Below, in pieces: positions 1 through 13,054 of a DNA stretch of 23,326 nucleotides. The stretch is from positions 1 to 23,326 of the forward strand of contig JBHHXN010000078.1 in assembly GCA_046757025.1 (NCBI GenBank). Direction: 5' to 3'. Source of the DNA: a bacterium (lineage in GTDB: Bacteria > Zhuqueibacterota > Zhuqueibacteria > Oceanimicrobiales > Oceanimicrobiaceae). A program made the translations under genes and the position numbers. Below the pieces are notes generated by a model. The model ran no database searches. It saw only the letters and a program-made list of their open reading frames with translations, and was not told the origin of the DNA. Positions within the stretch are counted from its first letter, which is position 1, and the number at the start of each line of letters is the position of its first letter.

Positions 1-55
1 TGGATTCCCGCTTAAAGATGCGGGAATGACAAAAAAAGGCTCTTTACGGATGGAC
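1..55. mobile_element. Right part of a MITE truncated by the window edge, carrying a REP-like palindrome
   Basis: Hairpin ATTCCCGC(4-11)-8 nt-GCGGGAAT(20-27) ends in GAC. It is followed by TTTACGGATGGAC (43-55), which resembles the right end TTTTCGGATGGATAC at 1949-1963, and then TAATTA (56-61). The left end is outside the window. Confidence 0.65.
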
Positions 56-61
56 TAATTA

Positions 62-191
62 GCGTCTGACCGACAACGACCCTCTTTTGACGAAGACCTC
101 CTGGCCGAGGAGTGAATTCCTGCTTGGTTCGGGTGGAAACATTCGTGAAGAAGATTTTAAAACGCGCATTTCTCGAATTTCGGTCAGACAA
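62..191. mobile_element. 130-bp MITE, family A, copy 1
   Basis: Ends GCGTCTGACCGACAA (62-76) and ATTTCGGTCAGACAA (177-191) share a perfect 10-bp inverted core, GTCTGACCGA. TAATTA flanks both sides (56-61, 192-197). A homologous copy lies at 11554-11678. Confidence 0.85.
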
Positions 192-198
192 TAATTAG

Positions 199-227
199 AT
201 TTGATCCGGCAAAAGACCGGTTCAAAT
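199..227. terminator. Stem-loop upstream of the operon leader, possible terminator or insulator
   Basis: ATTTGATCCGG (199-209) and CCGGTTCAAAT (217-227) pair at 10 of 11 positions around a 7-nt loop. Flanks are AT-rich but there is no clean U-tract. Confidence 0.35.
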
Positions 228-296
228 TAAATGAAAGATAATTTGATGTTACAATTCATTGACTCCGCGCACTGCTTTTAAAACATTTCAATTACA

Positions 297-355
297 GCCA
301 AGTGAACCCCAGCGCCAAGAAAGAAGGAGCTTGGGACTCACGTGGCGGAGCTGTA
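297..355 (+). promoter_or_regulatory. Leader hairpin plus ops-like element, candidate antiterminator loading site
   Basis: Outer stem GCCAAGTGA(297-305)/TCACGTGGC(338-346) and inner stem CCCCAGCGCC(307-316)/GGAGCTTGGG(326-335). GGCGGAGC (344-351) resembles the RfaH ops core GGCGGTAG and lies about 33 nt before the NusG-paralog start. Confidence 0.55.
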
Positions 356-384
356 TCGGAAAGAACTAAACTGATTCTCAAATC

Positions 385-939
385 ATGGACAAAAATTTAA
401 AAATCAATAGCAATGTGAATTGGCAATGGTATGCACTCTACACCCGACCACGGTTTGAAAAAAAGGTGGATTCGCTGCTTAAAGAAAAAGGAATGGAGAG
501 TTTTCTCCCTTTACGCAAGGTTCGAAAGAGATGGAGTGATCGATGGAAAATCATTGAAGAGCCGTTGTTTAGCTGCTATGTGTTCGTGAGAATCCCTTTT
601 AGACAGCGTATCTTTGCTTTGCAAACACAGGGTGTGGTGCGAATGGTGACATTCGACGGCCGGCCGTCTCCCATTCCAGATGAGGAAATGGCGGCGGTGA
701 GGCGTTTGCTTCGGAGTGAAGTTAAATTCGAAATCAGCCCGTATTGTTTTGCCATTGGCCAGAAAGTCGAAATCAAGTATGGCCCGTTGGCCGGCGTCCG
801 TGGACAGTTGATTGAAAAACGCGGTCAAAAAAAACTGCTGGTGGGGATTGAACAGATCCGCCAGGGCTTGCGAATTGAAATCAGTGAACATGAAATCGTG
901 CCGGTTAGTCAGGAGAAAAAACACATCCAAGCAGCGTAA
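385..939 (+). CDS. upxY: UpxY/RfaH-family (NusG paralog) transcription antiterminator
   Basis: NGN domain (WYALYTRPRFEKKV...FLPL...WSDRWKIIEEPLFSCYVFV) and KOW motif (GQKVEIKYGPLAGVRG). First gene of a polysaccharide operon. Confidence 0.92.
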   Translation: MDKNLKINSNVNWQWYALYTRPRFEKKVDSLLKEKGMESFLPLRKVRKRWSDRWKIIEEPLFSCYVFVRIPFRQRIFALQTQGVVRMVTFDGRPSPIPDEEMAAVRRLLRSEVKFEISPYCFAIGQKVEIKYGPLAGVRGQLIEKRGQKKLLVGIEQIRQGLRIEISEHEIVPVSQEKKHIQAA

Positions 940-1142
940 TCATGACAAACGGTCTGCGCAAAGATAACTTGCTCAGCATTTGTACTACCTCTGAATCGTT
1001 CTTCACTGTGAAATTTCAACTGCTCAAATCAACTCGAACTATTAATGTACAGACTGTTATTAGAATCATTGCGAAATGAATTCTGACGGACGGGCAATCC
1101 ATTGAGAAATTAAGCATCATCCATATAAAAAGGAATAAATCC

Positions 1143-1916
1143 ATGAAAGCAGTCATACTTGCCGGTGGTTATGGCACTCGCATTAGCGAAGAGAGCACGA
1201 TTCGCCCCAAGCCCATGGTGGAAATCGGCGGCCAGCCCATCCTCTGGCATGTCATGAAAATATACTCTGCCTTTGGCATCAATGACTTTATTATATGTTG
1301 CGGCTACAAAGGGTATATGATCAAGGAATATTTCGCCCACTATTTTTTGTACCGGGCCGACATCCGATTTGACGTCAAGAACAACACGCAGGAAATCCTG
1401 CAAAATGGCGCAGAACCGTGGAAGGTGGCGCTCATCGACACGGGTATCAGCACCATGACCGGTGGCCGTATGAAAAGAATCCGCCAGTACTTGGACAACG
1501 AACCGTTTTGTATGACGTACGGTGACGGCGTGGCGAATGTGAATATTCAAAGGCTGGTGGAATTCCATCAACAGCAAGGAGCTTCTGCCACTATGACCGC
1601 TGTACAGCCACCAGGAAGGTTCGGGGCGTTTAAGCTGGGCTCGGACGAGTTCAAAGTGGATTCATTTCGCGAAAAACCACACGGAGACGGCGCCTGGGTA
1701 AACGGCGGCTTTTTTGTGCTGGAACCGGAGGTGTTTGATTACATCGACAACGATTCAACGGTATGGGAAAAAGAACCGCTGGAGAATCTAGCCAGAGACC
1801 ACAAATTATCGGCTTACAAACACAAAGGTTTCTGGCAGCCCATGGACACGCTGCGCGACAAAAACGTCCTCGAAGAGCTCTGGCAATGCGGCGAACCGCC
1901 CTGGAAAGTTTGGTAA
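1143..1916 (+). CDS. rfbF: Glucose-1-phosphate cytidylyltransferase
   Basis: [56 protein letters not shown] and C-terminal PWKVW. RBS AAGGA upstream. Confidence 0.96.
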
Positions 1917-1919
1917 TTA

Positions 1920-1963
1920 GGGTCTGGCCGAAAATTGCAAAAGGCGCGTTTTCGGATGGATAC
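1920..1963. mobile_element. 44-bp minimal family-A MITE remnant
   Basis: TAATTA (1914-1919, containing the rfbF stop), then GGGTCTGGCCGAAAA (1920-1934), a 14-nt spacer, TTTTCGGATGGATAC (1949-1963) and a degenerate CAATTT. The ends are 10/15 complementary and match the family-A ends. Confidence 0.6.
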
Positions 1964-1981
1964 CAATTTAGCAGGAAGACC

Positions 1982-3094
1982 ATGAAATCAGCCAAAGACA
2001 TTGTTTTAGAAGATTTGGAATTCATTTGCGAACAGGCCGTGGAAGAACTCGGTCAGATGTCCGGCAAAAGCGTGCTCATCACCGGCGGCGGCGGTTTCCT
2101 CGGTTACTACCTGGTACAGAGCTTGCTTTTCTGGAATAAGCACCATACGAGTGATCGGCCAATTGCCGTTACCGTGTTTGATAACTTCATGCTGGGCGTA
2201 CCGGGTTGGCTGCAAGAGTTGCAGTCGGATGCGAATTTAGTTTTCATCAAACACGACATAACCGCGCCGCTGCCAGCACCGATAGACGATTTTGATTATA
2301 TCATTCACGCTGCATCCATCGCTTCTCCGACGTTTTACCGTCAATATCCCATCGAAACCATGGACGCCAACGTGGCGGGGCTGCGTTCACTTCTGGATTA
2401 TTGCATGCAGCAACAAAGGCGGTGGCAACCCGTGGCCGGGTTTTTGTTTTTTTCTACCAGTGAAATTTACGGTGATCCCACACCGGAAAACATTCCCACG
2501 CCGGAAAACTATCGCGGCAATGTGTCCTGCACCGGACCAAGAGCCTGTTATGACGAAGCCAAACGCTTTGGGGAAACCCTTTGTGTGAATTTTGCCAGAA
2601 AATACGCTCTGCCGATTAAAATCGCCCGGCCATTTAACAATTATGGACCCGGTTTGAAAATCGCAGATAAAAGAGTCATTCCCGATTTTGCCCAGGATAT
2701 TTTCGCTGGTCGGGATTTAGTCATGCATTCGAATGGCGCACCCACTCGAACATTTTGCTACGTAACCGACGCCGTCGTCGGTTATTTCAAAATATTAGTT
2801 AGAGGTCGTTCAGGGGAACCTTATAACATTGGGGTTGAAAAACCCGAAATTTCCATTGCACAGTTAGCCAGTTGCATGGTGCAAATTGCCCGGGAGCACT
2901 TCGGGTATCAGGGGACCGTGGTTCAGTGTAAAAGCACGGATAAAGATTATCTGGTGGACAATCCGAACCGCCGTTGTCCCATGATCACCAAGGCCAGAAA
3001 AGAGCTCAATTACCATCCCAAAATTGCGCTGGATGAGGGATTACAGCGCGCGCTGATCTGGTACCATGACAACCGGCAAGGAGTGATGAACTAA
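1982..3094 (+). CDS. NDP-glucuronate decarboxylase (UXS-like extended SDR)
   Basis: TGGGGFLG, HAASIASP, STSEIYG, GPRACYDEAKR, RPFNNYGPG, TRTFCYVTD and NPNRRCP. Start reset to ATG 1982, which has AGGAAG upstream. The 1763 start overlaps rfbF. Confidence 0.88.
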   Translation: MKSAKDIVLEDLEFICEQAVEELGQMSGKSVLITGGGGFLGYYLVQSLLFWNKHHTSDRPIAVTVFDNFMLGVPGWLQELQSDANLVFIKHDITAPLPAPIDDFDYIIHAASIASPTFYRQYPIETMDANVAGLRSLLDYCMQQQRRWQPVAGFLFFSTSEIYGDPTPENIPTPENYRGNVSCTGPRACYDEAKRFGETLCVNFARKYALPIKIARPFNNYGPGLKIADKRVIPDFAQDIFAGRDLVMHSNGAPTRTFCYVTDAVVGYFKILVRGRSGEPYNIGVEKPEISIAQLASCMVQIAREHFGYQGTVVQCKSTDKDYLVDNPNRRCPMITKARKELNYHPKIALDEGLQRALIWYHDNRQGVMN

Positions 3095-4431
3095 TGCAAG
3101 TGTCCATAATCGGAACGGGATACGTTGGTCTGGTGACCGGGGTGTGTTTAGCGGAAAAAGGTCATCAGGTGGTGTGCGTAGATTTGGATGCCGAGAAAGT
3201 CAATAAAATTAACCGCGCCATACCGCCGATTTTTGAAAACGGTCTGTCTGAGCTGCTGCAGAAGAACGTCAATCAAAAATTGCGTGCTACCACCGATCTG
3301 CGCGAAGCGGTACTCAACACCGAGCTTTCTGTGGTGGCGGTGGGTACTCCGTTCAACGGAGATACCATCGATTTGACGTTTATCGAAAATGTGTCCGCTC
3401 AGATCGGGGCCGCGCTGCTCCAGAAAAACCAATATCATTTGGTGGTGGTGAAAAGCACGGTCATACCCGGCACCACCGATAAAACCGTCATACCCATTTT
3501 AGAGCAATATTCCGGCAAGAAAGCCGGGCCGGATTTTGGCGTCGGCATGAACCCTGAATTTTTACGGGAAGGCCACGCTGTGGCCGATTTTATGGCTCCG
3601 GATCGCATCGTAATTGGCGGGCTGGATGAAAAAAGCCGAAAAAAAATGCAGGAGCTTTATGTGGGTTTCGAAGGCGTTCCCAAAATTGAGACCAACAATC
3701 AAACCGCAGAAATGATCAAGTACACCTCCAATTCTCTACTGGCCACCATGATTTCCTTCTCCAATGAAATTGCCAATTTGTGCGCTACATTAGGAAACAT
3801 CGACGTGGTGGAAGTTATGCGGGGCGTCCATCTCGACAAAAGATTGAGTCCTATATTAGCTAACGGTGAACGCATACGGCCGGACATCCTCACTTATCTG
3901 GAGGCCGGCTGCGGTTTCGGGGGAAGCTGCTTTCCAAAAGATGTGAAATCCTTGGCTGCACAGGGTAGAAAATTGGGCCAGTCCATGCCGCTGTTGGAGG
4001 CCGTGCTGCAGGTAAATGCACACCAACCCCAACAAGTGCTGAGCCGTTTAAAAAAACATTTCCCCAACCTCAAAGGACTGCAAGTGGTTGTACTGGGACT
4101 GGCTTTCAAAGCCGGTACAGATGACATGCGAGAATCGCCGGCGATTCCGATCATCGAGGATCTACTTGCTCAGCAAGTCAAGATCAAAGCGTATGATCCG
4201 GTGGCGATTTCGGCGGCGCACAAATTCTTTGGCAATCATCAAATTCGTTACTTTGATGATATGGAACAAGCCATTCAAAATGTGCAAGCTATTTTGCTGT
4301 TGACTCGCCAGCCGGAGTTTGAACGGCTTCCGCAGTTGCTGCAAGGAATGCAGTCGCAACCCTTATTCATCGATGGTCGTCGTATGCTGGATAAACACGG
4401 CGTGGCGCGTTATGAGGGCATTGGCTTGTGA
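3094..4431 (+). CDS. ugd: UDP-glucose/GDP-mannose dehydrogenase family (NDP-sugar 6-dehydrogenase)
   Basis: IGTGYVGL, VGTP, KSTVIPGT, NPEFLREG, catalytic GFGGSCFPKD and GLAFKAGTDDMRESP. TAATG overlap with the previous gene. Nucleotide specificity cannot be read from the sequence. Confidence 0.9.
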   Translation: MQVSIIGTGYVGLVTGVCLAEKGHQVVCVDLDAEKVNKINRAIPPIFENGLSELLQKNVNQKLRATTDLREAVLNTELSVVAVGTPFNGDTIDLTFIENVSAQIGAALLQKNQYHLVVVKSTVIPGTTDKTVIPILEQYSGKKAGPDFGVGMNPEFLREGHAVADFMAPDRIVIGGLDEKSRKKMQELYVGFEGVPKIETNNQTAEMIKYTSNSLLATMISFSNEIANLCATLGNIDVVEVMRGVHLDKRLSPILANGERIRPDILTYLEAGCGFGGSCFPKDVKSLAAQGRKLGQSMPLLEAVLQVNAHQPQQVLSRLKKHFPNLKGLQVVVLGLAFKAGTDDMRESPAIPIIEDLLAQQVKIKAYDPVAISAAHKFFGNHQIRYFDDMEQAIQNVQAILLLTRQPEFERLPQLLQGMQSQPLFIDGRRMLDKHGVARYEGIGL

Positions 4432-5009
4432 AATTTACAGAAACAAATTTGCCTGGCGTTTTCATCATAGAGCCGCAAAAAATTGAGGACGCACGTGGGT
4501 ATTTCGCCCGGGCCTGGTGTGCAAATGAGTTTGTACAAATGGGCATCCCATTTCAACCGGTTCAGGTCAATCTTGGCTACAGTAAAAAGCGGGGTACTTT
4601 ACGCGGTTTGCATTATCAAATTGCGCCAGGTGAAGAAGCGAAGTTGATTCGCTGTATTCGCGGCGCCATCTTCGATGTGGTCATCGACCTACGGCCAGAC
4701 TCTGACACATACAAACATTGGCTGGGTGTGGAGCTTTCGGCAAATAATCAGAAGATGCTGTTTATGCCAGAGGGATTTGCCCACGGTTACCAAACACTGC
4801 AAGACGAAACCGAAGTTTTTTATCAGGTGTCGCAATTTTATGCGCCCGAGTTTGAGCGCGGCATCCGGTGGGATGACCTCGGTTTTAAAATCCAGTGGCC
4901 AGTGACCAAAGAGGTCATTCTCTCCGAAAAGGATCGGAGCTGGCCGGATTTTAGTGACTCTGGACATGATTTGCAAGTTGACGCCCAATTCGAAAGGATT
5001 CATGAGTGA
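4428..5009 (+). CDS. rfbC: dTDP-4-dehydrorhamnose 3,5-epimerase family (RmlC-like cupin)
   Basis: DARGYFAR, GTLRGLHYQ, GAIFDVVIDLRPDS, PEGFAHGYQTL and LSEKD. GTG start overlaps the ugd stop (GTGA). Confidence 0.92.
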   Translation: MKFTETNLPGVFIIEPQKIEDARGYFARAWCANEFVQMGIPFQPVQVNLGYSKKRGTLRGLHYQIAPGEEAKLIRCIRGAIFDVVIDLRPDSDTYKHWLGVELSANNQKMLFMPEGFAHGYQTLQDETEVFYQVSQFYAPEFERGIRWDDLGFKIQWPVTKEVILSEKDRSWPDFSDSGHDLQVDAQFERIHE

Positions 5010-5827
5010 AGATAATCGGTTTGATACCCGCAGCTGGCACGGCAAAGCGCATTGCACCGCTGCCTTGCAGTAAGGAGCTGTTTCCCATCGGATTTCAAAA
5101 TTCAACTGCAACCGGTGCACAGATTCCCAAAACGGTTTGCCATTACCTGCTGGAAAAGATGCGTTTCGCAGGCGTCAAGAATGCGTATATCGTTCTGCGC
5201 AAAGGCAAGTGGGACATCCCGGAATATTTTGGTGACGGCAACGAACTGGACATGAATCTCGCCTATCTGATCATGAACCGCCCTTTCGGCGCCCCTTTCA
5301 CTTTGGATCAGGCTTACCAATTTGTAAAAGATGCGCAGGTCTTGTTTGGTTTTCCGGATATCCTTTTTCAACCGGAGGAGGCTTTTGTGCGGTTACTCAA
5401 AAAGCTGGCGGATTCAAATGCGGAGGTCGTGTTGGGTCTGTTTCCGACGGATCATCCCCAGAAAATGGACATGGTGGAGATGACGCCTGATGGGCAGATT
5501 TGCCGCATCGAAATCAAACCGATGCAGACACACCTAAAATACACTTGGATCATTGCGGTTTGGACGCAAGTGTTCACGCGATTTCTGCACACCTATCTCA
5601 AAGAGGTTGGCATGGTTGAGTCAAAAACAAACAAGAACCACGACGCGGATTTGAGCAATGAATGGTATGTTGGCGATGTCATACAAGCCGCCTTGGAGGA
5701 CGGCATGCGCATAGAAGCCGTAACCTTTCGCGATGCCAAATATATCGACATCGGTACGCCGGCAGATCTGGCGCGAGCCGTGCACGTTTGGAATCCAAAA
5801 AAGGAGACTTTAAATGATAATCGTTGA
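5006..5827 (+). CDS. Sugar-phosphate nucleotidyltransferase (divergent RmlA-like)
   Basis: GLIPAAGTAKRIAPLPCSKELFPIG and C-terminal YIDIGTP. FGFPD replaces the RmlA LGDN. GTGA overlap. Confidence 0.85.
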   Translation: MKIIGLIPAAGTAKRIAPLPCSKELFPIGFQNSTATGAQIPKTVCHYLLEKMRFAGVKNAYIVLRKGKWDIPEYFGDGNELDMNLAYLIMNRPFGAPFTLDQAYQFVKDAQVLFGFPDILFQPEEAFVRLLKKLADSNAEVVLGLFPTDHPQKMDMVEMTPDGQICRIEIKPMQTHLKYTWIIAVWTQVFTRFLHTYLKEVGMVESKTNKNHDADLSNEWYVGDVIQAALEDGMRIEAVTFRDAKYIDIGTPADLARAVHVWNPKKETLNDNR

Positions 5828-7121
5828 CTCGGCTTTACAAAAACGGGAAATGGCGGGACATCATGTACACGTGGCATTAGTCGGAGCAGGGTACATGGGC
5901 CGCGGTATCGCTTTGCAGTTTCTGACCGCGGTGAAGGGCATGAAACTGGCGGCGATTTCGAATCGCACCGTGGCCAGTGCAGAACACGCCTACCTTCGGG
6001 CAGGGGCTGATTCCGTGAATTTTGTGGAAACCGTGGAGCAGCTCGAGGAATCCATTGCGGCCGGGCAGTATGCGGTAACAAACGATCCATTTTTGTTGTG
6101 CCAGGCAAAAAGTATCGATGTCATCATCGAAGCCACCGGCGACGTGGAATTCAGTGCGCAGGTGGTCATGAATGCCATTGAAAATCGCAAGCACGTCGTG
6201 CTGATGAATGCCGAGCTGGATGCGCTTGTGGGGCCGATTTTGAAAAAGTACGCGGATGAAAATCATGTCGTCATCACCAATGCCGACGGCGATCAACCCG
6301 GCGTGGTCATGAACCTTTTGCGTTCTGTGAAAACCACTTACGGCTGCGAGCCGGTTTTGGCTGGAAATATCAAGGGTCTGCAAGATTATTATCGAACTCC
6401 GGAAACTCAGAGAGATTTTGCCGACAAACACAATCTTACACCACAGATGGCCACCTCGTTTGCCGATGGCACCAAAATTTCCATGGAGATGGCGGTGGTG
6501 GCCAATGCTACCGGCTTCAAAGTTGGCCGGCGCGGCATGTACGGCCCAAGCTGTGCTCATATCACTGAAGCACTGGATTTGTTTCCAAAAGAGGACCTGC
6601 TCAACGGCGGCCTGGTGGATTATGTGCTGGGCGCCGAACCCAGTCCGGGTGTATTTGCCATCGGTTACAACGATCATCCTTTGAAAAAACCTTACATGAA
6701 TTATTTTAAAATGGGAGACGGCCCGTTCTACATTTTTTACACACCGTATCATCTGCCCCATTTGGAGGTGGCCATGACCGCAGCCCGGGCGGCATTGTTT
6801 CACGACGCGGCCATCGCTCCGGTGGCCGGGCCCGTGTGCGACGTCATCACTGTGGCAAAACGGGATTTAAACAGCGGGGAAATTCTGGATGGCATTGGCG
6901 GCTTCACCTGTTATGGTATGCTGGAGAACGCCGAGAATTGCCAGGAAGAAAATCTTCTGCCTATGGGACAATCACAAAACTGTCGCTTAATTCGAAGTGT
7001 GGCCAAAGATCAAGCGATTACTCACGAAGATGTGGTTTTACCGCCCGGCCGGCTCAGCGATAAATTGCGTGAGGAACAAAATGAAGTTTTTTACAGCGAA
7101 CACAAATTGGCATTTGTTTAG
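5814..7121 (+). CDS. NAD(P)-dependent oxidoreductase, homoserine-dehydrogenase-like with C-terminal SAF domain
   Basis: VGAGYMGRG, MNAELD..VGPIL, ADGDQPG, SFADGTK..EM..VANATG, PYHLPHLE and SAF segment VAKRDLNSGEILDGIGGF...LPMG. Confidence 0.85.
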   Translation: MIIVDSALQKREMAGHHVHVALVGAGYMGRGIALQFLTAVKGMKLAAISNRTVASAEHAYLRAGADSVNFVETVEQLEESIAAGQYAVTNDPFLLCQAKSIDVIIEATGDVEFSAQVVMNAIENRKHVVLMNAELDALVGPILKKYADENHVVITNADGDQPGVVMNLLRSVKTTYGCEPVLAGNIKGLQDYYRTPETQRDFADKHNLTPQMATSFADGTKISMEMAVVANATGFKVGRRGMYGPSCAHITEALDLFPKEDLLNGGLVDYVLGAEPSPGVFAIGYNDHPLKKPYMNYFKMGDGPFYIFYTPYHLPHLEVAMTAARAALFHDAAIAPVAGPVCDVITVAKRDLNSGEILDGIGGFTCYGMLENAENCQEENLLPMGQSQNCRLIRSVAKDQAITHEDVVLPPGRLSDKLREEQNEVFYSEHKLAFV

Positions 7122-7153
7122 ATAAATATTCATTTCAAAATAAAAAATGAAAA

Positions 7154-8041
7154 ATGAAACCAACACCGTCCATAATTGAGAAAACGTCTCCGCTACCTAA
7201 ACCGCTGATTGAGTCTGCAGAACTGCCGGAAATCATCATTCAACCGTCAAAAGGGTGGGTTTCTCTCAAGATCAACGAATTGTTTGAATATCGCGAGCTC
7301 TTCTATTTTTTGGTCTGGCGCGACATCAAAGTGCGTTACAAGCAAACCGTGCTGGGGGCGGCCTGGGCCATCATACAACCCTTTTTTACCATGGTGGTTT
7401 TCAGTCTGTTCTTTGGCAAATTTGCGAAAATTCCGTCAGATGGCGTACCTTATCCCATATTTGCCTTTGCGGCTCTGGTACCCTGGACCTTTTTTGCCAA
7501 CGGGCTCAACATGGCTTCCAACAGTTTGGTGGCCAGCGCGAATATGATCAAAAAAGTGTATTTTCCACGATTGATAATTCCCGTATCTTCGGTGATGGCC
7601 GGTGTGGTGGATTTTGTGCTGGCGTTCCTGGTCTTGCTTTTAATGATGCTTTATTATGGGCTGATGCCGACCCTGAACATTATTTGTCTGCCGTTATTGC
7701 TGGTATTAGCGTTTGTCACCTCGCTTGGTACCGCATTGTGGTTGTCGGCCATGAACGTGCAGTTTCGCGACGTTCGTTACACCCTGCCATTTTTAACGCA
7801 GTTCTGGTTGTTTGCCACCCCCATCGCCTATCCCAGCAGTTTGCTGCACGAGCCCTGGCGAACTTTGTACGGAATCAATCCTATGGCAGGGGTGGTGGAA
7901 GGATTCCGCTGGGCGCTTTTGGGAACCGACACCGCACCGGGAGCCATCATCATCGTTTCCAGTTTCGTGGCTGTCGGGTTGTTGCTGAGCGGAGCGCTGT
8001 ATTTTCGCCGTATGGAAAAAACCTTCGCCGATGTGGTTTGA
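7154..8041 (+). CDS. wzm: Polysaccharide ABC transporter permease
   Basis: YRELFYFLVWRDIKVRYKQTVLGAAWAIIQP, KKVYFPR, FRDVRY, INPMAGVVEGFR, C-terminal FADVV and about 6 hydrophobic segments. Confidence 0.95.
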   Translation: MKPTPSIIEKTSPLPKPLIESAELPEIIIQPSKGWVSLKINELFEYRELFYFLVWRDIKVRYKQTVLGAAWAIIQPFFTMVVFSLFFGKFAKIPSDGVPYPIFAFAALVPWTFFANGLNMASNSLVASANMIKKVYFPRLIIPVSSVMAGVVDFVLAFLVLLLMMLYYGLMPTLNIICLPLLLVLAFVTSLGTALWLSAMNVQFRDVRYTLPFLTQFWLFATPIAYPSSLLHEPWRTLYGINPMAGVVEGFRWALLGTDTAPGAIIIVSSFVAVGLLLSGALYFRRMEKTFADVV

Positions 8042-8050
8042 GGAGATAAA

Positions 8051-9328
8051 ATGAGCACTATTGCAATTCAGGTGGAAAAATTAAGCAAGCAGTACCGCAT
8101 AGGTACGAAGCAAGAAAGTTATCACACGCTACGCGATACTTTGACGGATACGTTTGCAGCCCCGTTTCGCCGAGTCAAGAAACTGCTGCAAGGTCAAGCC
8201 ACTGGTGCCGCCGATTTAGACGAAATCATCTGGGCGCTGAAAGACGTGTCCTTTAAAGTCGAACACGGGGAAGTACTTGGCGTCATTGGCCGCAATGGCG
8301 CCGGTAAAAGCACTTTGCTCAAGGTACTTTCTCGAATCACGGAACCCAGTGCAGGTCGTGCGCGGATTTGCGGCCGGGTTGGGTCGTTGTTGGAAGTAGG
8401 CACCGGCTTTCATCCGGAGCTAACTGGACGTGAGAATATTTTTTTGAATGGTGCCATTCTTGGCATGCGACGGGAAGAAATTGAGCGCAAATTTGATGAA
8501 ATCGTGGCTTTTTCGGAAGTAGAAAGATTTATCGACACACCGGTCAAGCATTATTCCAGCGGCATGTATCTGCGGCTGGCGTTTGCCGTGGCTGCCCACC
8601 TGCAGCCGGAAATCCTGCTGGTGGATGAAGTGCTGGCGGTGGGCGATTCCGCCTTTCAGAAAAAATGTCTGGGTAAAATGCGCGATGTGGCGGAAGAAGG
8701 GCGAACCGTTCTGTTTGTGAGTCACAATATGGGCGCCGTTTCGCAATTGTGCAGCCGAGCTCTCTGGATCGATGATGGTCAAATCAAAAGCAACGGCCCT
8801 TCAGCGGAAGTGGTGGCGCAGTATTTGACCTCGGTTTCAACCAGCAGTTCTACCTGGATTAACCAATCAAATAACTTTTCCGAGTTGAAAGCCCGTATCA
8901 AATCCGCTACCCTGATAAATTACCGTGGCGAGTTGGAGACCGTGGTGGATTTTAACAAGCCATTTAAAGTTGAAATTGTTTACGATGTGTACGAATCCAC
9001 AAAGCGATTTGCCATTTTGTGCCGTCTGACGAATATGGCCGGCGAAATCGTCTGGACCTCCTGGGATGTGGACACCACCGATTGGAGCCATCGCGAACGA
9101 GAACCCGGTCGTTATGTTTCAATTTGTACTGTGAATGGCAACTTGTTACGCCCCGGACCTTACTTGGTTTCCGTAGGATCCTTGACTCCCAGAGGACGAT
9201 TTCTGAGTTACCACGAACATGTGCTGACGTTTGAAATCTCTTCCATGGGCTTTCCCCTGAATTTAGATCGTGGTGGGGTGATCACACCTTTGCTTGAGTG
9301 GGAAATTCAAAAAATAAGACTTGTCTGA
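8051..9328 (+). CDS. wzt: Polysaccharide ABC transporter ATPase with C-terminal Wzt_C-like domain
   Basis: Walker A GRNGAGKST, signature YSSGM, Walker B LLVDEVLAVGD, H-loop VSH and a ~160-aa C-terminal extension with LRPGPYLV. RBS GAGGAG. Confidence 0.95.
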   Translation: MSTIAIQVEKLSKQYRIGTKQESYHTLRDTLTDTFAAPFRRVKKLLQGQATGAADLDEIIWALKDVSFKVEHGEVLGVIGRNGAGKSTLLKVLSRITEPSAGRARICGRVGSLLEVGTGFHPELTGRENIFLNGAILGMRREEIERKFDEIVAFSEVERFIDTPVKHYSSGMYLRLAFAVAAHLQPEILLVDEVLAVGDSAFQKKCLGKMRDVAEEGRTVLFVSHNMGAVSQLCSRALWIDDGQIKSNGPSAEVVAQYLTSVSTSSSTWINQSNNFSELKARIKSATLINYRGELETVVDFNKPFKVEIVYDVYESTKRFAILCRLTNMAGEIVWTSWDVDTTDWSHREREPGRYVSICTVNGNLLRPGPYLVSVGSLTPRGRFLSYHEHVLTFEISSMGFPLNLDRGGVITPLLEWEIQKIRLV

Positions 9329-9347
9329 GATAATTCGTTCATAAATA

Positions 9348-9491
9348 GTGATTGACCGAAAAATCCAAATTTCTTCACCCTGAGCCCTTCTACAAGCTCA
9401 GGATAAACTGCGACGAAGGGTGATAAGCTGTTGTTTTTATGTCATGCTTCGACTCTGCTCAGCATGAAGATGCTCATTTTCGGTCAATCAC
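9348..9491. mobile_element. 144-bp family-A-related MITE with REP-like cargo
   Basis: Perfect 15-bp TIR GTGATTGACCGAAAA (9348-9362)/TTTTCGGTCAATCAC (9477-9491). Direct repeat TAAATA at 9342-9347 and 9492-9497. Internal hairpins TCACCCT..AGGGTGA (9375-9423) and TCATGCT..AGCATGA (9442-9467). Confidence 0.92.
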
Positions 9492-9568
9492 TAAATAGAA
9501 TCATAAAAATATAGTATTTCAAAAGCTATTCATCAACTATTGTTTAATCGGAGGACCGAATTTAGGAA

Positions 9569-10315
9569 ATGTTACAAAAAGTTTTATCTGGAGCAAATAA
9601 ACACATTCAGTCTCTGGTAAGAAATCGTCTGTTTGGGCTGGACGCCATGGCGAAACAATATTTCAGTCAATTTGGTGAAGACGCTTGTATTCAGAGTTAT
9701 TTCCGCGCCAAAGCGTATCAAACTTTTGGCGATGTAACAAAGATGGAAAAGGGATTTTATGTGGACGTGGGAGCGTATTCTCCCAAAAAACTTTCCAATA
9801 CTTACTGGTTTTATAATCAAGGGTGGCGCGGCATAAATATTGAGCCGGCGCCCGGCTCAAAAAAAATATTTGATGCAGCCCGTCCACGAGATTTCAATGT
9901 GGAGGTCGCCATTTCGAACCAGGAAAAAGAAAGTGATTTCTTTGTTTGGGCCGTGCCGTTTGTTTACAACACCCTGAGCAAAACGAAAGCGGAAATCTTT
10001 GCTAAAAAACTGGGCAGAAAGCCTGAAAAAATAAAGGTGCAAACACAGCGATTGGAATCGATTTTGGATAGGTATCTACCGGCCGGCCAACAGATTAGTT
10101 TTTTTTCCATCGATGTAAAAGGCTACATCCTGCAGGTTTTGCAATCCAATAATTGGGTTAAATATCGTCCTGAGTTGGTGGCTATCGAAGATTTCAAGAC
10201 CAATATCCAGGAACTGCTGGATTCGGAAATTTCAAAATATATGTACAAACAGGGGTATATTTTGAAATATTGGGTACCGCCAAGCAGCATCTACGTGAAA
10301 GCAACGTTCGATTAG
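9569..10315 (+). CDS. FkbM-family SAM-dependent methyltransferase
   Basis: FSQFGED, GFYVDVGAYSP..SNT..FY..GWRGINIEP, RPRD.N..AIS, SIDVKG (consensus IDVEG) and NWVKYRP. GGAGG upstream. Confidence 0.88.
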   Translation: MLQKVLSGANKHIQSLVRNRLFGLDAMAKQYFSQFGEDACIQSYFRAKAYQTFGDVTKMEKGFYVDVGAYSPKKLSNTYWFYNQGWRGINIEPAPGSKKIFDAARPRDFNVEVAISNQEKESDFFVWAVPFVYNTLSKTKAEIFAKKLGRKPEKIKVQTQRLESILDRYLPAGQQISFFSIDVKGYILQVLQSNNWVKYRPELVAIEDFKTNIQELLDSEISKYMYKQGYILKYWVPPSSIYVKATFD

Positions 10316-10567
10316 AGGCAGTGAACCGCCAACAAATATCAAAAGAAATGATTAATTTATTTAACCTGATTAATTCATAATCAACGAAATAACACAGAAA
10401 AAAACAATGAATAGCATATTATTCATGGGCGACTAACTTACTGTTTTTCAATTATCTGTTTTATTCTGTATTTTGGAGTGGTGAATAATTCAGGATAATT
10501 AATTTATGTATCAGTACGATTGCGACGAGTTATGCTACATTTCAATTTGACGATAGACACTTTTATT

Positions 10568-11434
10568 ATGAAAATTAAGAAACTTATTATGAGATTTCTT
10601 TTTAGTATTAGTAAATATGTTGACTTTTTTCTTGAACCAATGGTATCTCAAAAAGGAATTAATATTCAAATCCAGAAATTGTTTTTACTTCCTTATGCGC
10701 TACAAGAAAAATCCAAAATATTTTCTCCCATTTTTGTTGTAGGGTGCCCCCATAGTGGCACCTCCGTAATGTTAGCTATATTAGATAATCACCAAAATAT
10801 AATAGCGGTTACAATGGAAACGAAGGTATTCTACAAAACGAGTCTGGAAAAAATACTTATCTTCCGTGATTGGAGTAAAATGACCATTTTGGCTGGAAAG
10901 CAAAGATGGGCAGAGAAAACGCCTTATCATATTGAGAAAATTAATGAGATTTTGAGATATTACCCTGATGCCAGAATTATATTAATGCTTCGGGATGGTC
11001 GTGATGTCGCTTGTTCCATAAAATATCGCGTGAATGATTTTGAGTTTGGAGTTGATGAATGGTTGAAATGGAACAGGTTTGGAGAAAGTTTTTGGTCAAA
11101 TAAAAAAGTGATGGTAGTTAAATACGAGAGTGTAGTTAAGCATACTCATAATTCACTTAGTAAGATATTTGCATTCCTTGGTGAACCTTATGAAGCAGAA
11201 ATGTCAGAATTAGGCAATAAAAGTAGAAGATGGTATAGTGAAAATATAGAAAAGCCCTCAAGTCGTGCTCGTGAACATCATAATGATTTTCGAAACTGGC
11301 AGATAAACCAGCCGCTTTTTGATGGAAGTGGTAAATGGATTCTTTCCATGACGGATGATGAGCGGATGCTTTTCAAAACAAAAGCTGGAGACCTCTTGCT
11401 TAAATATGGTTATGTAAATGATAATAATTGGTAA
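10568..11434 (+). CDS. PAPS-dependent sulfotransferase (AT-rich)
   Basis: 5'-PSB loop IFVVGCPHSGTS, WAEKTP, 3'-PB RDGRDVACS and VKYE..V. Start uncertain; ATG 10568 preferred over TTG 10520. Confidence 0.85.
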   Translation: MKIKKLIMRFLFSISKYVDFFLEPMVSQKGINIQIQKLFLLPYALQEKSKIFSPIFVVGCPHSGTSVMLAILDNHQNIIAVTMETKVFYKTSLEKILIFRDWSKMTILAGKQRWAEKTPYHIEKINEILRYYPDARIILMLRDGRDVACSIKYRVNDFEFGVDEWLKWNRFGESFWSNKKVMVVKYESVVKHTHNSLSKIFAFLGEPYEAEMSELGNKSRRWYSENIEKPSSRAREHHNDFRNWQINQPLFDGSGKWILSMTDDERMLFKTKAGDLLLKYGYVNDNNW

Positions 11435-11553
11435 ATGACTCTTCAATCCTCCATGGAGTTGCTTCGAAGAGGTCTATATTATCGCACTCGTAACGAATCC
11501 TACGATGGCGACCACAGAAAACATGATGTACGGAAGTCGGTGAGTTGTCGGGA

Positions 11554-11678
11554 GAACGAAAACGACCCTATCTTCCCGAAGGCCTACTGGCCGAGGGTGA
11601 ATTCCTGCTTGGCTCGGCGGGGACGCCTTAGCGAAGAAGTTTTTAAATCGCGTATTTCTCGAGTTTTCGTTCAGACAC
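11554..11678. mobile_element. Family A MITE, copy 2, left end damaged
   Basis: Colinear with 68-191 through shared blocks AACGACCCT, CTGGCCGAGG, GTGAATTCCTGCTTGG, GAAGAAG, TTTTAAA and ATTTCTCGA. Right TIR TTTTCGTTCAGACAC (11664-11678) is followed by TAATTA (11679-11684). Only GAACGAAAA of the left TIR remains. Confidence 0.85.
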
Positions 11679-11728
11679 TAATTACTGAGCAGTTTATTTC
11701 AAATGAAACAAAATTAATTTAAGTGATT

Positions 11729-13054
11729 ATGAAAGTCTTACTAATTCACCTGGGAGATTCACACAGCGGCGGCGGCGGCGGTATAGCCATGCACCGTTTG
11801 TACACTCAATTCAGAAAATCCGGTGTGGATGCACGGATTCTGTGTCAGTGGAAAACCATCGTTTCGCCGTACATTTCTACTCTCCCTTCAACCACGCGTT
11901 TGGAAAGCTGGCTGCGAAAAGTGACTTCCAGGCTGGGTTTGAATGATATTTACAAACTGAGCTCTTTCAAGATAAAAGATTTGGACGTGTTTAAGCAAGC
12001 GGATATCGTCGATTTTCAGGGTATACACAGTGGCACACTCTCGTATCTGGCGCTGCCAGTTCTAACAAAAACAAAGCCAGCGGTGTTTACCTTGCACGAT
12101 ATGTGGGCCTTTACCGGTCACTGTGCTTACACCTATGAGTGCACACGCTGGCAAACCGGCTGCGGCCAGTGTCCCCATCTCGACTCATTGCCAGCGGTCA
12201 TGCGCGACGGCACCAAAATCGAATGGAAGTTGAAAAGCAGGGTTTATAAAAAAGCCAATCTGAGTTTTGTCGTACCGAGTCAATGGCTGGTTCAACAAGC
12301 GCACACCAGCATGTTGGCGCCCTACCCGATTCACTATATTCCGCATGGTGTGGACGTTCGGCAATTCCAGCCTTTAGATCCTGTGCAATGTCGAAAGATG
12401 TTGGGCATTTCGTCTAAAAAGAAAGTTTTGTTATTCGTGGCACAGAATTTTAAAGATAAACGAAAAGGCGGTGATCTGCTTTTGAAAGCACTGCGACGTA
12501 TCCCTGCTACGCTGCAAAAAGAATCCGTGCTGCTTTCCCTCGGAAAAGCAGGCGAGATGGATTTTCATGATTTGAATATGCCGGTTTTGAATCTGGGTTA
12601 TGTTTATCACGATCGCATGAAAGCCATCGCCTACTCAGCAGCCGACCTCTTTCTCTTTCCCACAAGAAGCGATATATTTGGGTTGGTTTCCATTGAAAGT
12701 CAGGCTTGCGGTACGCCGGTGGTTTCATTTCGAGTCGGGGGTGTGTCCGAACATGTTCGCTCCGGTCTGACTGGCTATTTAGCCGAAGCTGAAAATTCAG
12801 ACGACTTTGCCAGTGGTATCCAAGAGCTGCTGGAAGATAATTCAATGCGGGAATCCCTGGGCCAACAAGGCCGGCAAATGGTATTGAATGAATATACCAT
12901 TGAATTGCAAACAAAACGATATTTGAATTTGTACCGACATTTGATGAACAAGGGCAATGGAAAATCTGATGAAGATTTGACTCAGATATCATTTGAAAAT
13001 CAAAAGCGGCCGGTTTGTGAAGCTACGGCTGAGCAGGAAACCATTGAAAAGTGA
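11729..13054 (+). CDS. GT4 glycosyltransferase (WcaC-like)
   Basis: GGGGIAMHRL, TLHDMWAFTGHC Cys-rich insert, YSAADLFLFPTRSDIFGLVSIESQACGTPVV and TGYLA. GTG 11723 is an alternative start. Confidence 0.9.
   Translation: MKVLLIHLGDSHSGGGGGIAMHRLYTQFRKSGVDARILCQWKTIVSPYISTLPSTTRLESWLRKVTSRLGLNDIYKLSSFKIKDLDVFKQADIVDFQGIHSGTLSYLALPVLTKTKPAVFTLHDMWAFTGHCAYTYECTRWQTGCGQCPHLDSLPAVMRDGTKIEWKLKSRVYKKANLSFVVPSQWLVQQAHTSMLAPYPIHYIPHGVDVRQFQPLDPVQCRKMLGISSKKKVLLFVAQNFKDKRKGGDLLLKALRRIPATLQKESVLLSLGKAGEMDFHDLNMPVLNLGYVYHDRMKAIAYSAADLFLFPTRSDIFGLVSIESQACGTPVVSFRVGGVSEHVRSGLTGYLAEAENSDDFASGIQELLEDNSMRESLGQQGRQMVLNEYTIELQTKRYLNLYRHLMNKGNGKSDEDLTQISFENQKRPVCEATAEQETIEK

Follow-up and report, generated by a model that had tools for sequence, protein, structure and literature searches.

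The window, by which we mean the whole stretch of DNA analysed here, comprises 23,326 nucleotides of contig JBHHXN010000078.1 (C78) in a bacterial genome of 5.96 Mb, 374 contigs and 94.8% completeness (GCA_046757025.1; 'G000' in short). [quoted passage not shown] All eight ends listed there were found at the coordinates given, and seven of them stand beside TAATTA or TAAATA, the exception being the end at 1963 with CAATTT. Two classes of end were distinguished, AB (consensus GTG[AT][CT]TGA[AC]CG) and C (GTGTCCATCCG). A loose pattern of end plus hexamer recovered six sites in the window, whereas 100 shuffles averaged 0.25 and never gave more than 2. This pattern was derived from the window's own ends, and the genome-wide test with an end matrix reported below is therefore fairer. 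An Rfam search of positions 1-12000 gave no match.

The contig opens in the right-hand part of a type C MITE (1-55), which is cut by the contig start. Its end at 55 belongs to the C class and lacks the outer 2 nt; this form occurs at four genomic sites, and in the sequencing runs other copies of the end retain the 2 extra nt. Positions 1-31 hold a hairpin resembling the NTS and SRM motifs considered below, which does not match the published SRM pattern because the contig stops one base short. The TAATTA at 56-61 is common to this remnant and the following element, forming a back-to-back junction. This second element (62-191) is a decayed 130-bp copy with AB ends from cluster 0, the largest family (131-, 155- and 179-bp classes), with a fold z-score of -2.8 and the right copy of its TAATTA duplication at 192-197. 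Further along lies a 44-bp stub (1920-1963) with TAATTA on its left (1914-1919); the nucleotidyltransferase gene upstream (1143-1916) uses the TAA of this hexamer as its stop codon. The left end of the stub is AB-like, its right half resembles a type C end including the subterminal run, and its right flank, CAATTT, has two mismatches. Present as a single copy, it is probably old or a deletion product; a scan for short elements gave two matches, of which it is the sole credible tiny element. The 144-bp AB-ended MITE at 9348-9491 belongs to cluster 2 (121-, 144- and 155-bp classes) and forms two hairpins, one with a nested 23-bp module (fold z = -5.8). It is bounded by TAAATA at 9342-9347 and 9492-9497, repeated directly and not inverted. 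The last element, a 131-bp cluster 0 MITE (11548-11678), has an intact right end followed by TAATTA (11679-11684), and the outer 6 nt of its left end have been lost or replaced together with the left hexamer. A composite transposon spanning 9348-11678 was also considered and found no support, since the element on the left is duplicated at its own target and the two outer hexamers are unlike.

Throughout G000, a 15-nt end matrix in which the hexamer was not scored (threshold score ≥16) found 382 sites, against 9 in one shuffled genome. TAWWTA adjoins 184 of these exactly and 298 within one mismatch, at a background of 0.0011 per base. A broader end definition gave 528 ends (416 AB and 112 C) in 172 pairs, which cluster as groups of 60, 57, 18, 12, 7, 2 and 2 plus 14 singletons. 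Pairs above 260 bp were left out, and one mis-pair of 283 bp was removed, leaving 171 paired elements, all with 15-bp ends and none longer than 260 bp. None of them lies within an open reading frame (ORF) of at least 150 aa. The further genomic copies anticipated in the preliminary description were thus obtained, and clustering also bore out its view that many different interiors occur. Three long 'pairs' of 2.9-3.9 kb were rejected as separate MITEs or stray ends around ordinary genes. AB ends were present in 16 of 20 genomes of the family and C ends in 6, and a pattern scan of species genomes found at least 119 loci with such ends in many phyla. Within families, the copies have a median identity of 88-95% to the majority sequence, and only cluster 2 includes copies at 98% or above (5 of 18).

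The target of these elements proved to be a hexamer with a TA..TA frame. According to flank frequencies at 248 exact ends it is TANNTA with a preference for A/T in the middle, which is broader than the TAAWTA first proposed. Where TANNTA stands on both flanks, 66 of 78 pairs are directly identical, compared with a mean of 17 and a maximum of 31 in 10,000 shuffles. Of the 58 non-palindromic sites, 49 are direct and 1 is inverted. At metagenome loci, 50 of 60 are direct, and the non-palindromic subset again favours direct (29 of 36) over inverted (1) repeats. When duplication lengths from 2 to 10 were compared, identical flanks were found at 2 and 6 only. A 2-bp TA target with longer inverted repeats was rejected, as the middle of the hexamer repeats directly. 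Paralogous empty sites with exactly one hexamer were found for 7 of 165 elements, left and right flanks being searched separately and another 7 of the 172 being excluded as too close to contig ends. The gap was -6 in 31 of the 39 rows of this search, and in one of the seven cases the other site carries the neighbouring C element alone. Together with the direct non-palindromic repeats, these sites confirm a true 6-bp target duplication. Of the 171 elements, 21 (12%) have a target hexamer that overlaps a stop codon, as at window positions 1914-1916; for non-coding TAWWTA sites the figure is 190 of 3294 (6%). A host repeat with a near-doubled target hexamer and no element between was also observed (C1:144989-145000), possibly an excision footprint.

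Elements with the same ends around a transposase gene were found in other genomes. At locus L105, an element of 1886 bp, these ends enclose an ORF of 491 aa, which reaches 495 bits on NF033593 (ISNCY transposase; cut-off 325) and passes Pfam DDE_Tnp_1 (28.4 vs a cut-off of 23). The insertion sequence (IS) family, which the preliminary description had left unassigned, can accordingly be given as ISNCY; L155, L158 and L181 score 517, 422 and 349 bits on the same model. Homologues of L105 occur in 19 of 125 genomes of the class, and most homologue loci with enough flank have an end of the same type 140-270 bp from the gene. Eleven full-length elements of 1792-1905 bp with the same ends were delimited in other genomes. 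G000 itself retains a remnant (C83:14057-14368) in which the last hundred codons of the transposase gene survive; its closest relative is L158 (68%), and a perfect AB end with TAAGTA beside it lies 187 bp away. A full-length copy, which the preliminary description had advised looking for, was recovered elsewhere, and in G000 only this remnant with one end. D162, D380 and E431, a putative DDE catalytic triad, are conserved without exception in 18 of 18 proteins. Distant homologues bear the annotations ISRle10, ISMlo5 and ISRtr6, and a PDB sequence search with the transposase gave 0 matches. Two derived elements were seen among the loci: L100, a 628-bp internally deleted ISNCY that has kept its two ends and, of the gene, the 3' part, and L077, an ISNCY element interrupted by another transposase gene, presumably IS4-like by its N terminus.

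Other partners were considered and rejected. Our first guess was that the window elements were IS1182-family MITEs, which have look-alike ends of the form G-G--TG---CG-AAA. No DUF772 or DDE_Tnp_1_6 match was found in G000, and a credible end was present at 0 of 21 DUF772 loci of relatives, where one weak score of 10.6 came without a hexamer. The five DDE_Tnp_1 matches in G000 have none of these ends nearby. Within ISNCY, the ISDol1 group of ISfinder, ~1.6-1.9 kb long with 6-7 bp direct repeats, is a candidate assignment that would fit in size and repeat length. ISDol1 is named as an ISNCY subfamily in PMC8147514 and is not mentioned in six supplementary text files of that paper.

About 20 types of interior occur between these ends in G000, and the interiors of the five large families all consist of inverted (head-to-head) hairpin pairs. 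The '~100-bp conserved core' of the preliminary description can, from the alignment, also be read as an inverted pair of degenerate hairpins. Its proposal that any short DNA between such ends is mobilised was overstated for G000, because all five large families have hairpin-doublet interiors. In other genomes, elements of 28-36 bp with exact 6-bp duplications (L104, L060, L088 and L146) indicate that little interior is needed. Length classes within families differ by nested modules: the 131/155/179-bp and 121/144-bp series share a 23-24-bp unit, and a 27-bp unit is common to the 120/147-bp classes of C and the 132/159-bp classes of AB. Of the elements carrying the 27-mer, 30 have C ends and 6 have AB ends; the 24-mer was found in 41 elements of cluster 0 and 13 of cluster 2. 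Among the 44 C-ended elements, 27 fit the SRM pattern as published; among AB-ended ones it matches 1 of 12 in cluster 1 and none in clusters 0, 2, 3, 4, 5 and 6. Genome-wide it gave 94 matches against 12-27 in five shuffles. A looser hairpin scan ([CT]GTC tag, AT-initiated stem, head-to-head), built from the description of CGTC repeats in the text of PMC3733652, gave 237 hairpins against 44-61 after shuffling: 81 near ISNCY ends, 70 in four clusters with other common ends and 86 paired or alone. At least four other inverted-end systems in G000 bracket similar doublets (e.g. C10:28104-28320, C1:92428-92608, C3:17571-17753 and C21:31844-31989), and one of them has ~12 copies with near-canonical NTS motifs and longer (~10-bp) flanking repeats.

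Accordingly, we consider it very probable that the elements are non-coding MITEs with 6-bp TANNTA duplications and 15-bp ISNCY (NF033593) ends, likely moved in trans by at least two ISNCY lineages, with passive interiors. The earlier proposal of movement in trans by a target-specific DDE-type transposase is in this respect supported by the ends shared with ISNCY elements. In such a process, a transposase would bind both ends of an element, which would be cut out or copied and then inserted by a 6-bp staggered cut at TANNTA, each insertion creating two new target hexamers. The interior would likely be passive cargo, and after capture the interiors may have gained the 23-27-bp hairpin modules, one of which is shared by AB- and C-ended elements. 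For the most part the families appear old, and the assembly holds no intact transposase; they are therefore probably inactive or nearly so.

Several observations weigh against this reading. Over all elements the two hexamers are identical in only 68 of 171, and unlike flanks are what the preliminary description would have counted against itself. A further 184 of the 528 ends are unpaired. We read the unpaired ends and unlike hexamers as reflecting decay and contig breaks. Empty single-hexamer sites, which the preliminary description had advised seeking in related genomes, were found at paralogous loci in G000 and not at orthologous ones in relatives, where 4 of 20 match parts of the flanking coding DNA only, the relatives being too distant. 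No empty allele was found in four sequencing runs of one study, of which one may have given rise to the assembly. Among the full-length elements, only 4 of 11 have identical 6-bp repeats, and the pattern used to delimit all 11 favoured TA..TA flanks. The G000 assembly contains neither an intact transposase nor a remnant of the C-clade enzyme. A model of the transposase (pLDDT 82) gave weak matches to retroviral integrases, the best with an E value of 0.05. The subterminal DNA of 21 transposase loci gave no match to any interior (E below 1e-3), so that a simple origin by internal deletion of autonomous copies is not borne out. For the C ends, the corresponding transposase clade consists of 4 loci in 2 genomes, with both ends in view in L181 only. 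Finally, a third transposase clade has intermediate ends (GTGTC[CT]GTCCG), and end specificity may therefore be graded.

The hairpin interiors could also suggest repetitive extragenic palindromic (REP) or REPIN-type repeats spread by an HUH (RAYT) enzyme or by Ssn, with the ends and TA..TA being parts of one fixed motif. The interiors are indeed doublets of a REP-like form, and both Y1 transposase genes and GIY-YIG genes occur in the genome. However, the hexamer's variable middle recurs in direct orientation on the two sides, the empty sites contain a single hexamer, the same ends flank DDE-type transposase genes, and none of the three Y1 genes in G000 is flanked by these ends or by doublets. 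For whole elements this explanation is largely refuted and we hold it to be highly improbable; for the small nested modules it may still apply. Closer to the ISNCY reading is the assumption, made in the preliminary description, that a single transposase moved all elements, which would imply relaxed end recognition and make C one successful founder with drifted ends. The two classes have GTG...CG and the target in common, the remnant in the assembly is AB-type only, 2 of the 171 pairs are mixed and the stub at 1920-1963 looks mixed. The remaining 169 pairs join like with like (AB-AB 125, C-C 44), but C is a single family, so the 44 C-C pairs are not independent and the pairing count alone is weak. 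The C sequence, on the other hand, matches the ends of a separate transposase clade (L169, L172, L175 and L181) that is ~24% identical to L105 and has a support of 100/100, and C ends, found in 6 of the 20 family genomes, are absent from G013 despite its 220 strict AB ends. The back-to-back junctions with one common hexamer point the same way: 16 of 19 in G000 are AB/C against an expected 33-42% (P 8e-6 to 2e-4), as though each enzyme shunned or eliminated junctions formed by ends of its own class. Four AB/C junctions in G000 are perfect, and no perfect AB/AB junction was found in 21 genomes; speaking against a strict rule, G013 has 10 AB/AB junctions, none perfect, of which ~8 link two different AB subtypes. 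Target immunity, excision at like junctions or loss of palindromes could explain the scarcity of like-end junctions. A single transposase for all elements is thus probably wrong, and we regard it as unlikely; at least two enzyme lineages, one for AB ends and one for C ends, are likely.

A further proposal concerns the origin of the interiors and not their movement. They may derive from cargo transposons in which ISNCY ends enclosed a doublet, an ssn-like nuclease gene and a second doublet, the gene having been lost by recombination between the direct-repeat doublets. Such a layout was found at L334:530-1191 (G018:C484), where ISNCY ends lie around a doublet, an intact 93-aa GIY-YIG gene and a doublet 90% identical to the first over 100 bp; this is possibly a cargo transposon, and a lead only. 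L102, with a left end, a hairpin and an intact ssn-like gene, corresponds to the left half of this layout, and broken ssn-like genes still lie between two hairpins in a different end system of G000. G000 also has an intact ssn-like gene of 98 aa (C173:9606-9899), set among several tandem hairpin doublets where no ISNCY end occurs, a 91% identical gene being tandemly duplicated in G013:C206, and further broken copies at C28:34433, C129:9868, C337:243 and C109:10245. At C28:25998-26833, an ISNCY MITE is interrupted by a different-ended element carrying a broken ssn-like gene, which is a nested insertion and not direct capture. Against the proposal, both ends were found at 1 of 30 fetched ssn-like loci, namely L334, which has a degenerate right end and unlike flanks. 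No ssn-like gene was found at 125 metagenome end loci next to TGTCATT (80 of them with extended flanks), and the L334 doublet between ISNCY ends was not found elsewhere in G018 or G002. The reverse direction, in which an existing MITE gained the gene, is equally possible. We therefore find a cargo-transposon origin rather doubtful. Somewhat less doubtful, and offered tentatively, is a joint reading in which CGTC/SRM palindromes spread as passengers of MITEs derived from several unrelated DDE IS ends, doublets entering via L334-like transposons and modules being swapped perhaps at cuts made by Ssn. It is consistent with the finding that 151 of the 237 hairpins (chance expectation ~50) adjoin ISNCY ends or fall within the four clusters with other ends. 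If true, the system would be mobile at two tiers and would disperse target sites of Ssn as well. It would then also connect DDE MITEs with the Ssn nucleases, a system described recently, and would explain how CGTC repeats can multiply with no dedicated transposase, a question posed in PMC3733652.

The genes around the elements form an ordinary context. Starting with a NusG-family gene at 385-939, a long glycan biosynthesis cluster runs along one strand, with genes for a nucleotidyltransferase, an epimerase, a Wzt-type ABC transporter, a glycosyltransferase and a sulfotransferase. Between the MITEs at 9348-9491 and 11548-11678, FkbM methyltransferase and sulfotransferase genes (9569-11434) have a GC content of 32-40%, compared with 45-49% on either side, and are possibly a recent acquisition into the glycan cluster. 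Four hairpin-forming insertions lie between genes of this cluster led by a NusG paralogue, and they could affect transcript stability. Beyond the window, an unclassified IS group gains a target rule (TANNTA with a 6-bp duplication), end sequences that track transposase clades and widespread non-autonomous derivatives, and candidate enzymes and donor ends for a direct assay have been identified.

The elements appear to be a previously undescribed family of a known kind, the bacterial MITE; no description of it was found among openly accessible papers. They have the same ends and 6-bp repeats as ISNCY (NF033593) insertion sequences, and differ from these autonomous copies in having no coding capacity. 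Known bacterial MITEs include RUP, NEMIS and ERIC (PMC3733652), MITEPye1 (PMC11578231) and QMITE2 (PMC10969869), the last of which carries a GTAG-type REP and is thus a precedent for REP-bearing MITEs. With these the present elements have in common a length of 70-300 bp, terminal inverted repeats, direct repeats, an intergenic position, foldability and a presumed transposase acting in trans; target-site duplication, empty sites and ends shared with an autonomous IS place them in the same category. They differ in their ISNCY partner, in the TANNTA target and in the ~20 interior types under the same ends. The MITEs of PMC11578231 and PMC11448079 are tied to IS1182 and ISL3, and the IS1202 preprint (10.1101/2022.12.17.520857) concerns a different group. 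The hairpins resemble the CGTC-tagged REPs of Di Nocera 2013 (PMC3733652), palindromes reported without a transposase of their own, and the NTS/SRM motifs of the Ssn GIY-YIG nucleases (Chenal 2025, PMC11893778) in their TGTC/CGTC tag, the stem starting with AT, the head-to-head dimers and the intact ssn-like gene amid such repeats on C173. The strict SRM pattern, however, fails in clusters 0, 2, 3 and 4 and almost entirely in the AB-ended members of cluster 1, and doublets inside transposon ends with target duplications are not described in the relevant passages of PMC3733652 and PMC11893778. In contrast to other bacterial MITEs, the hairpin modules found here are common to several families and to both end classes.

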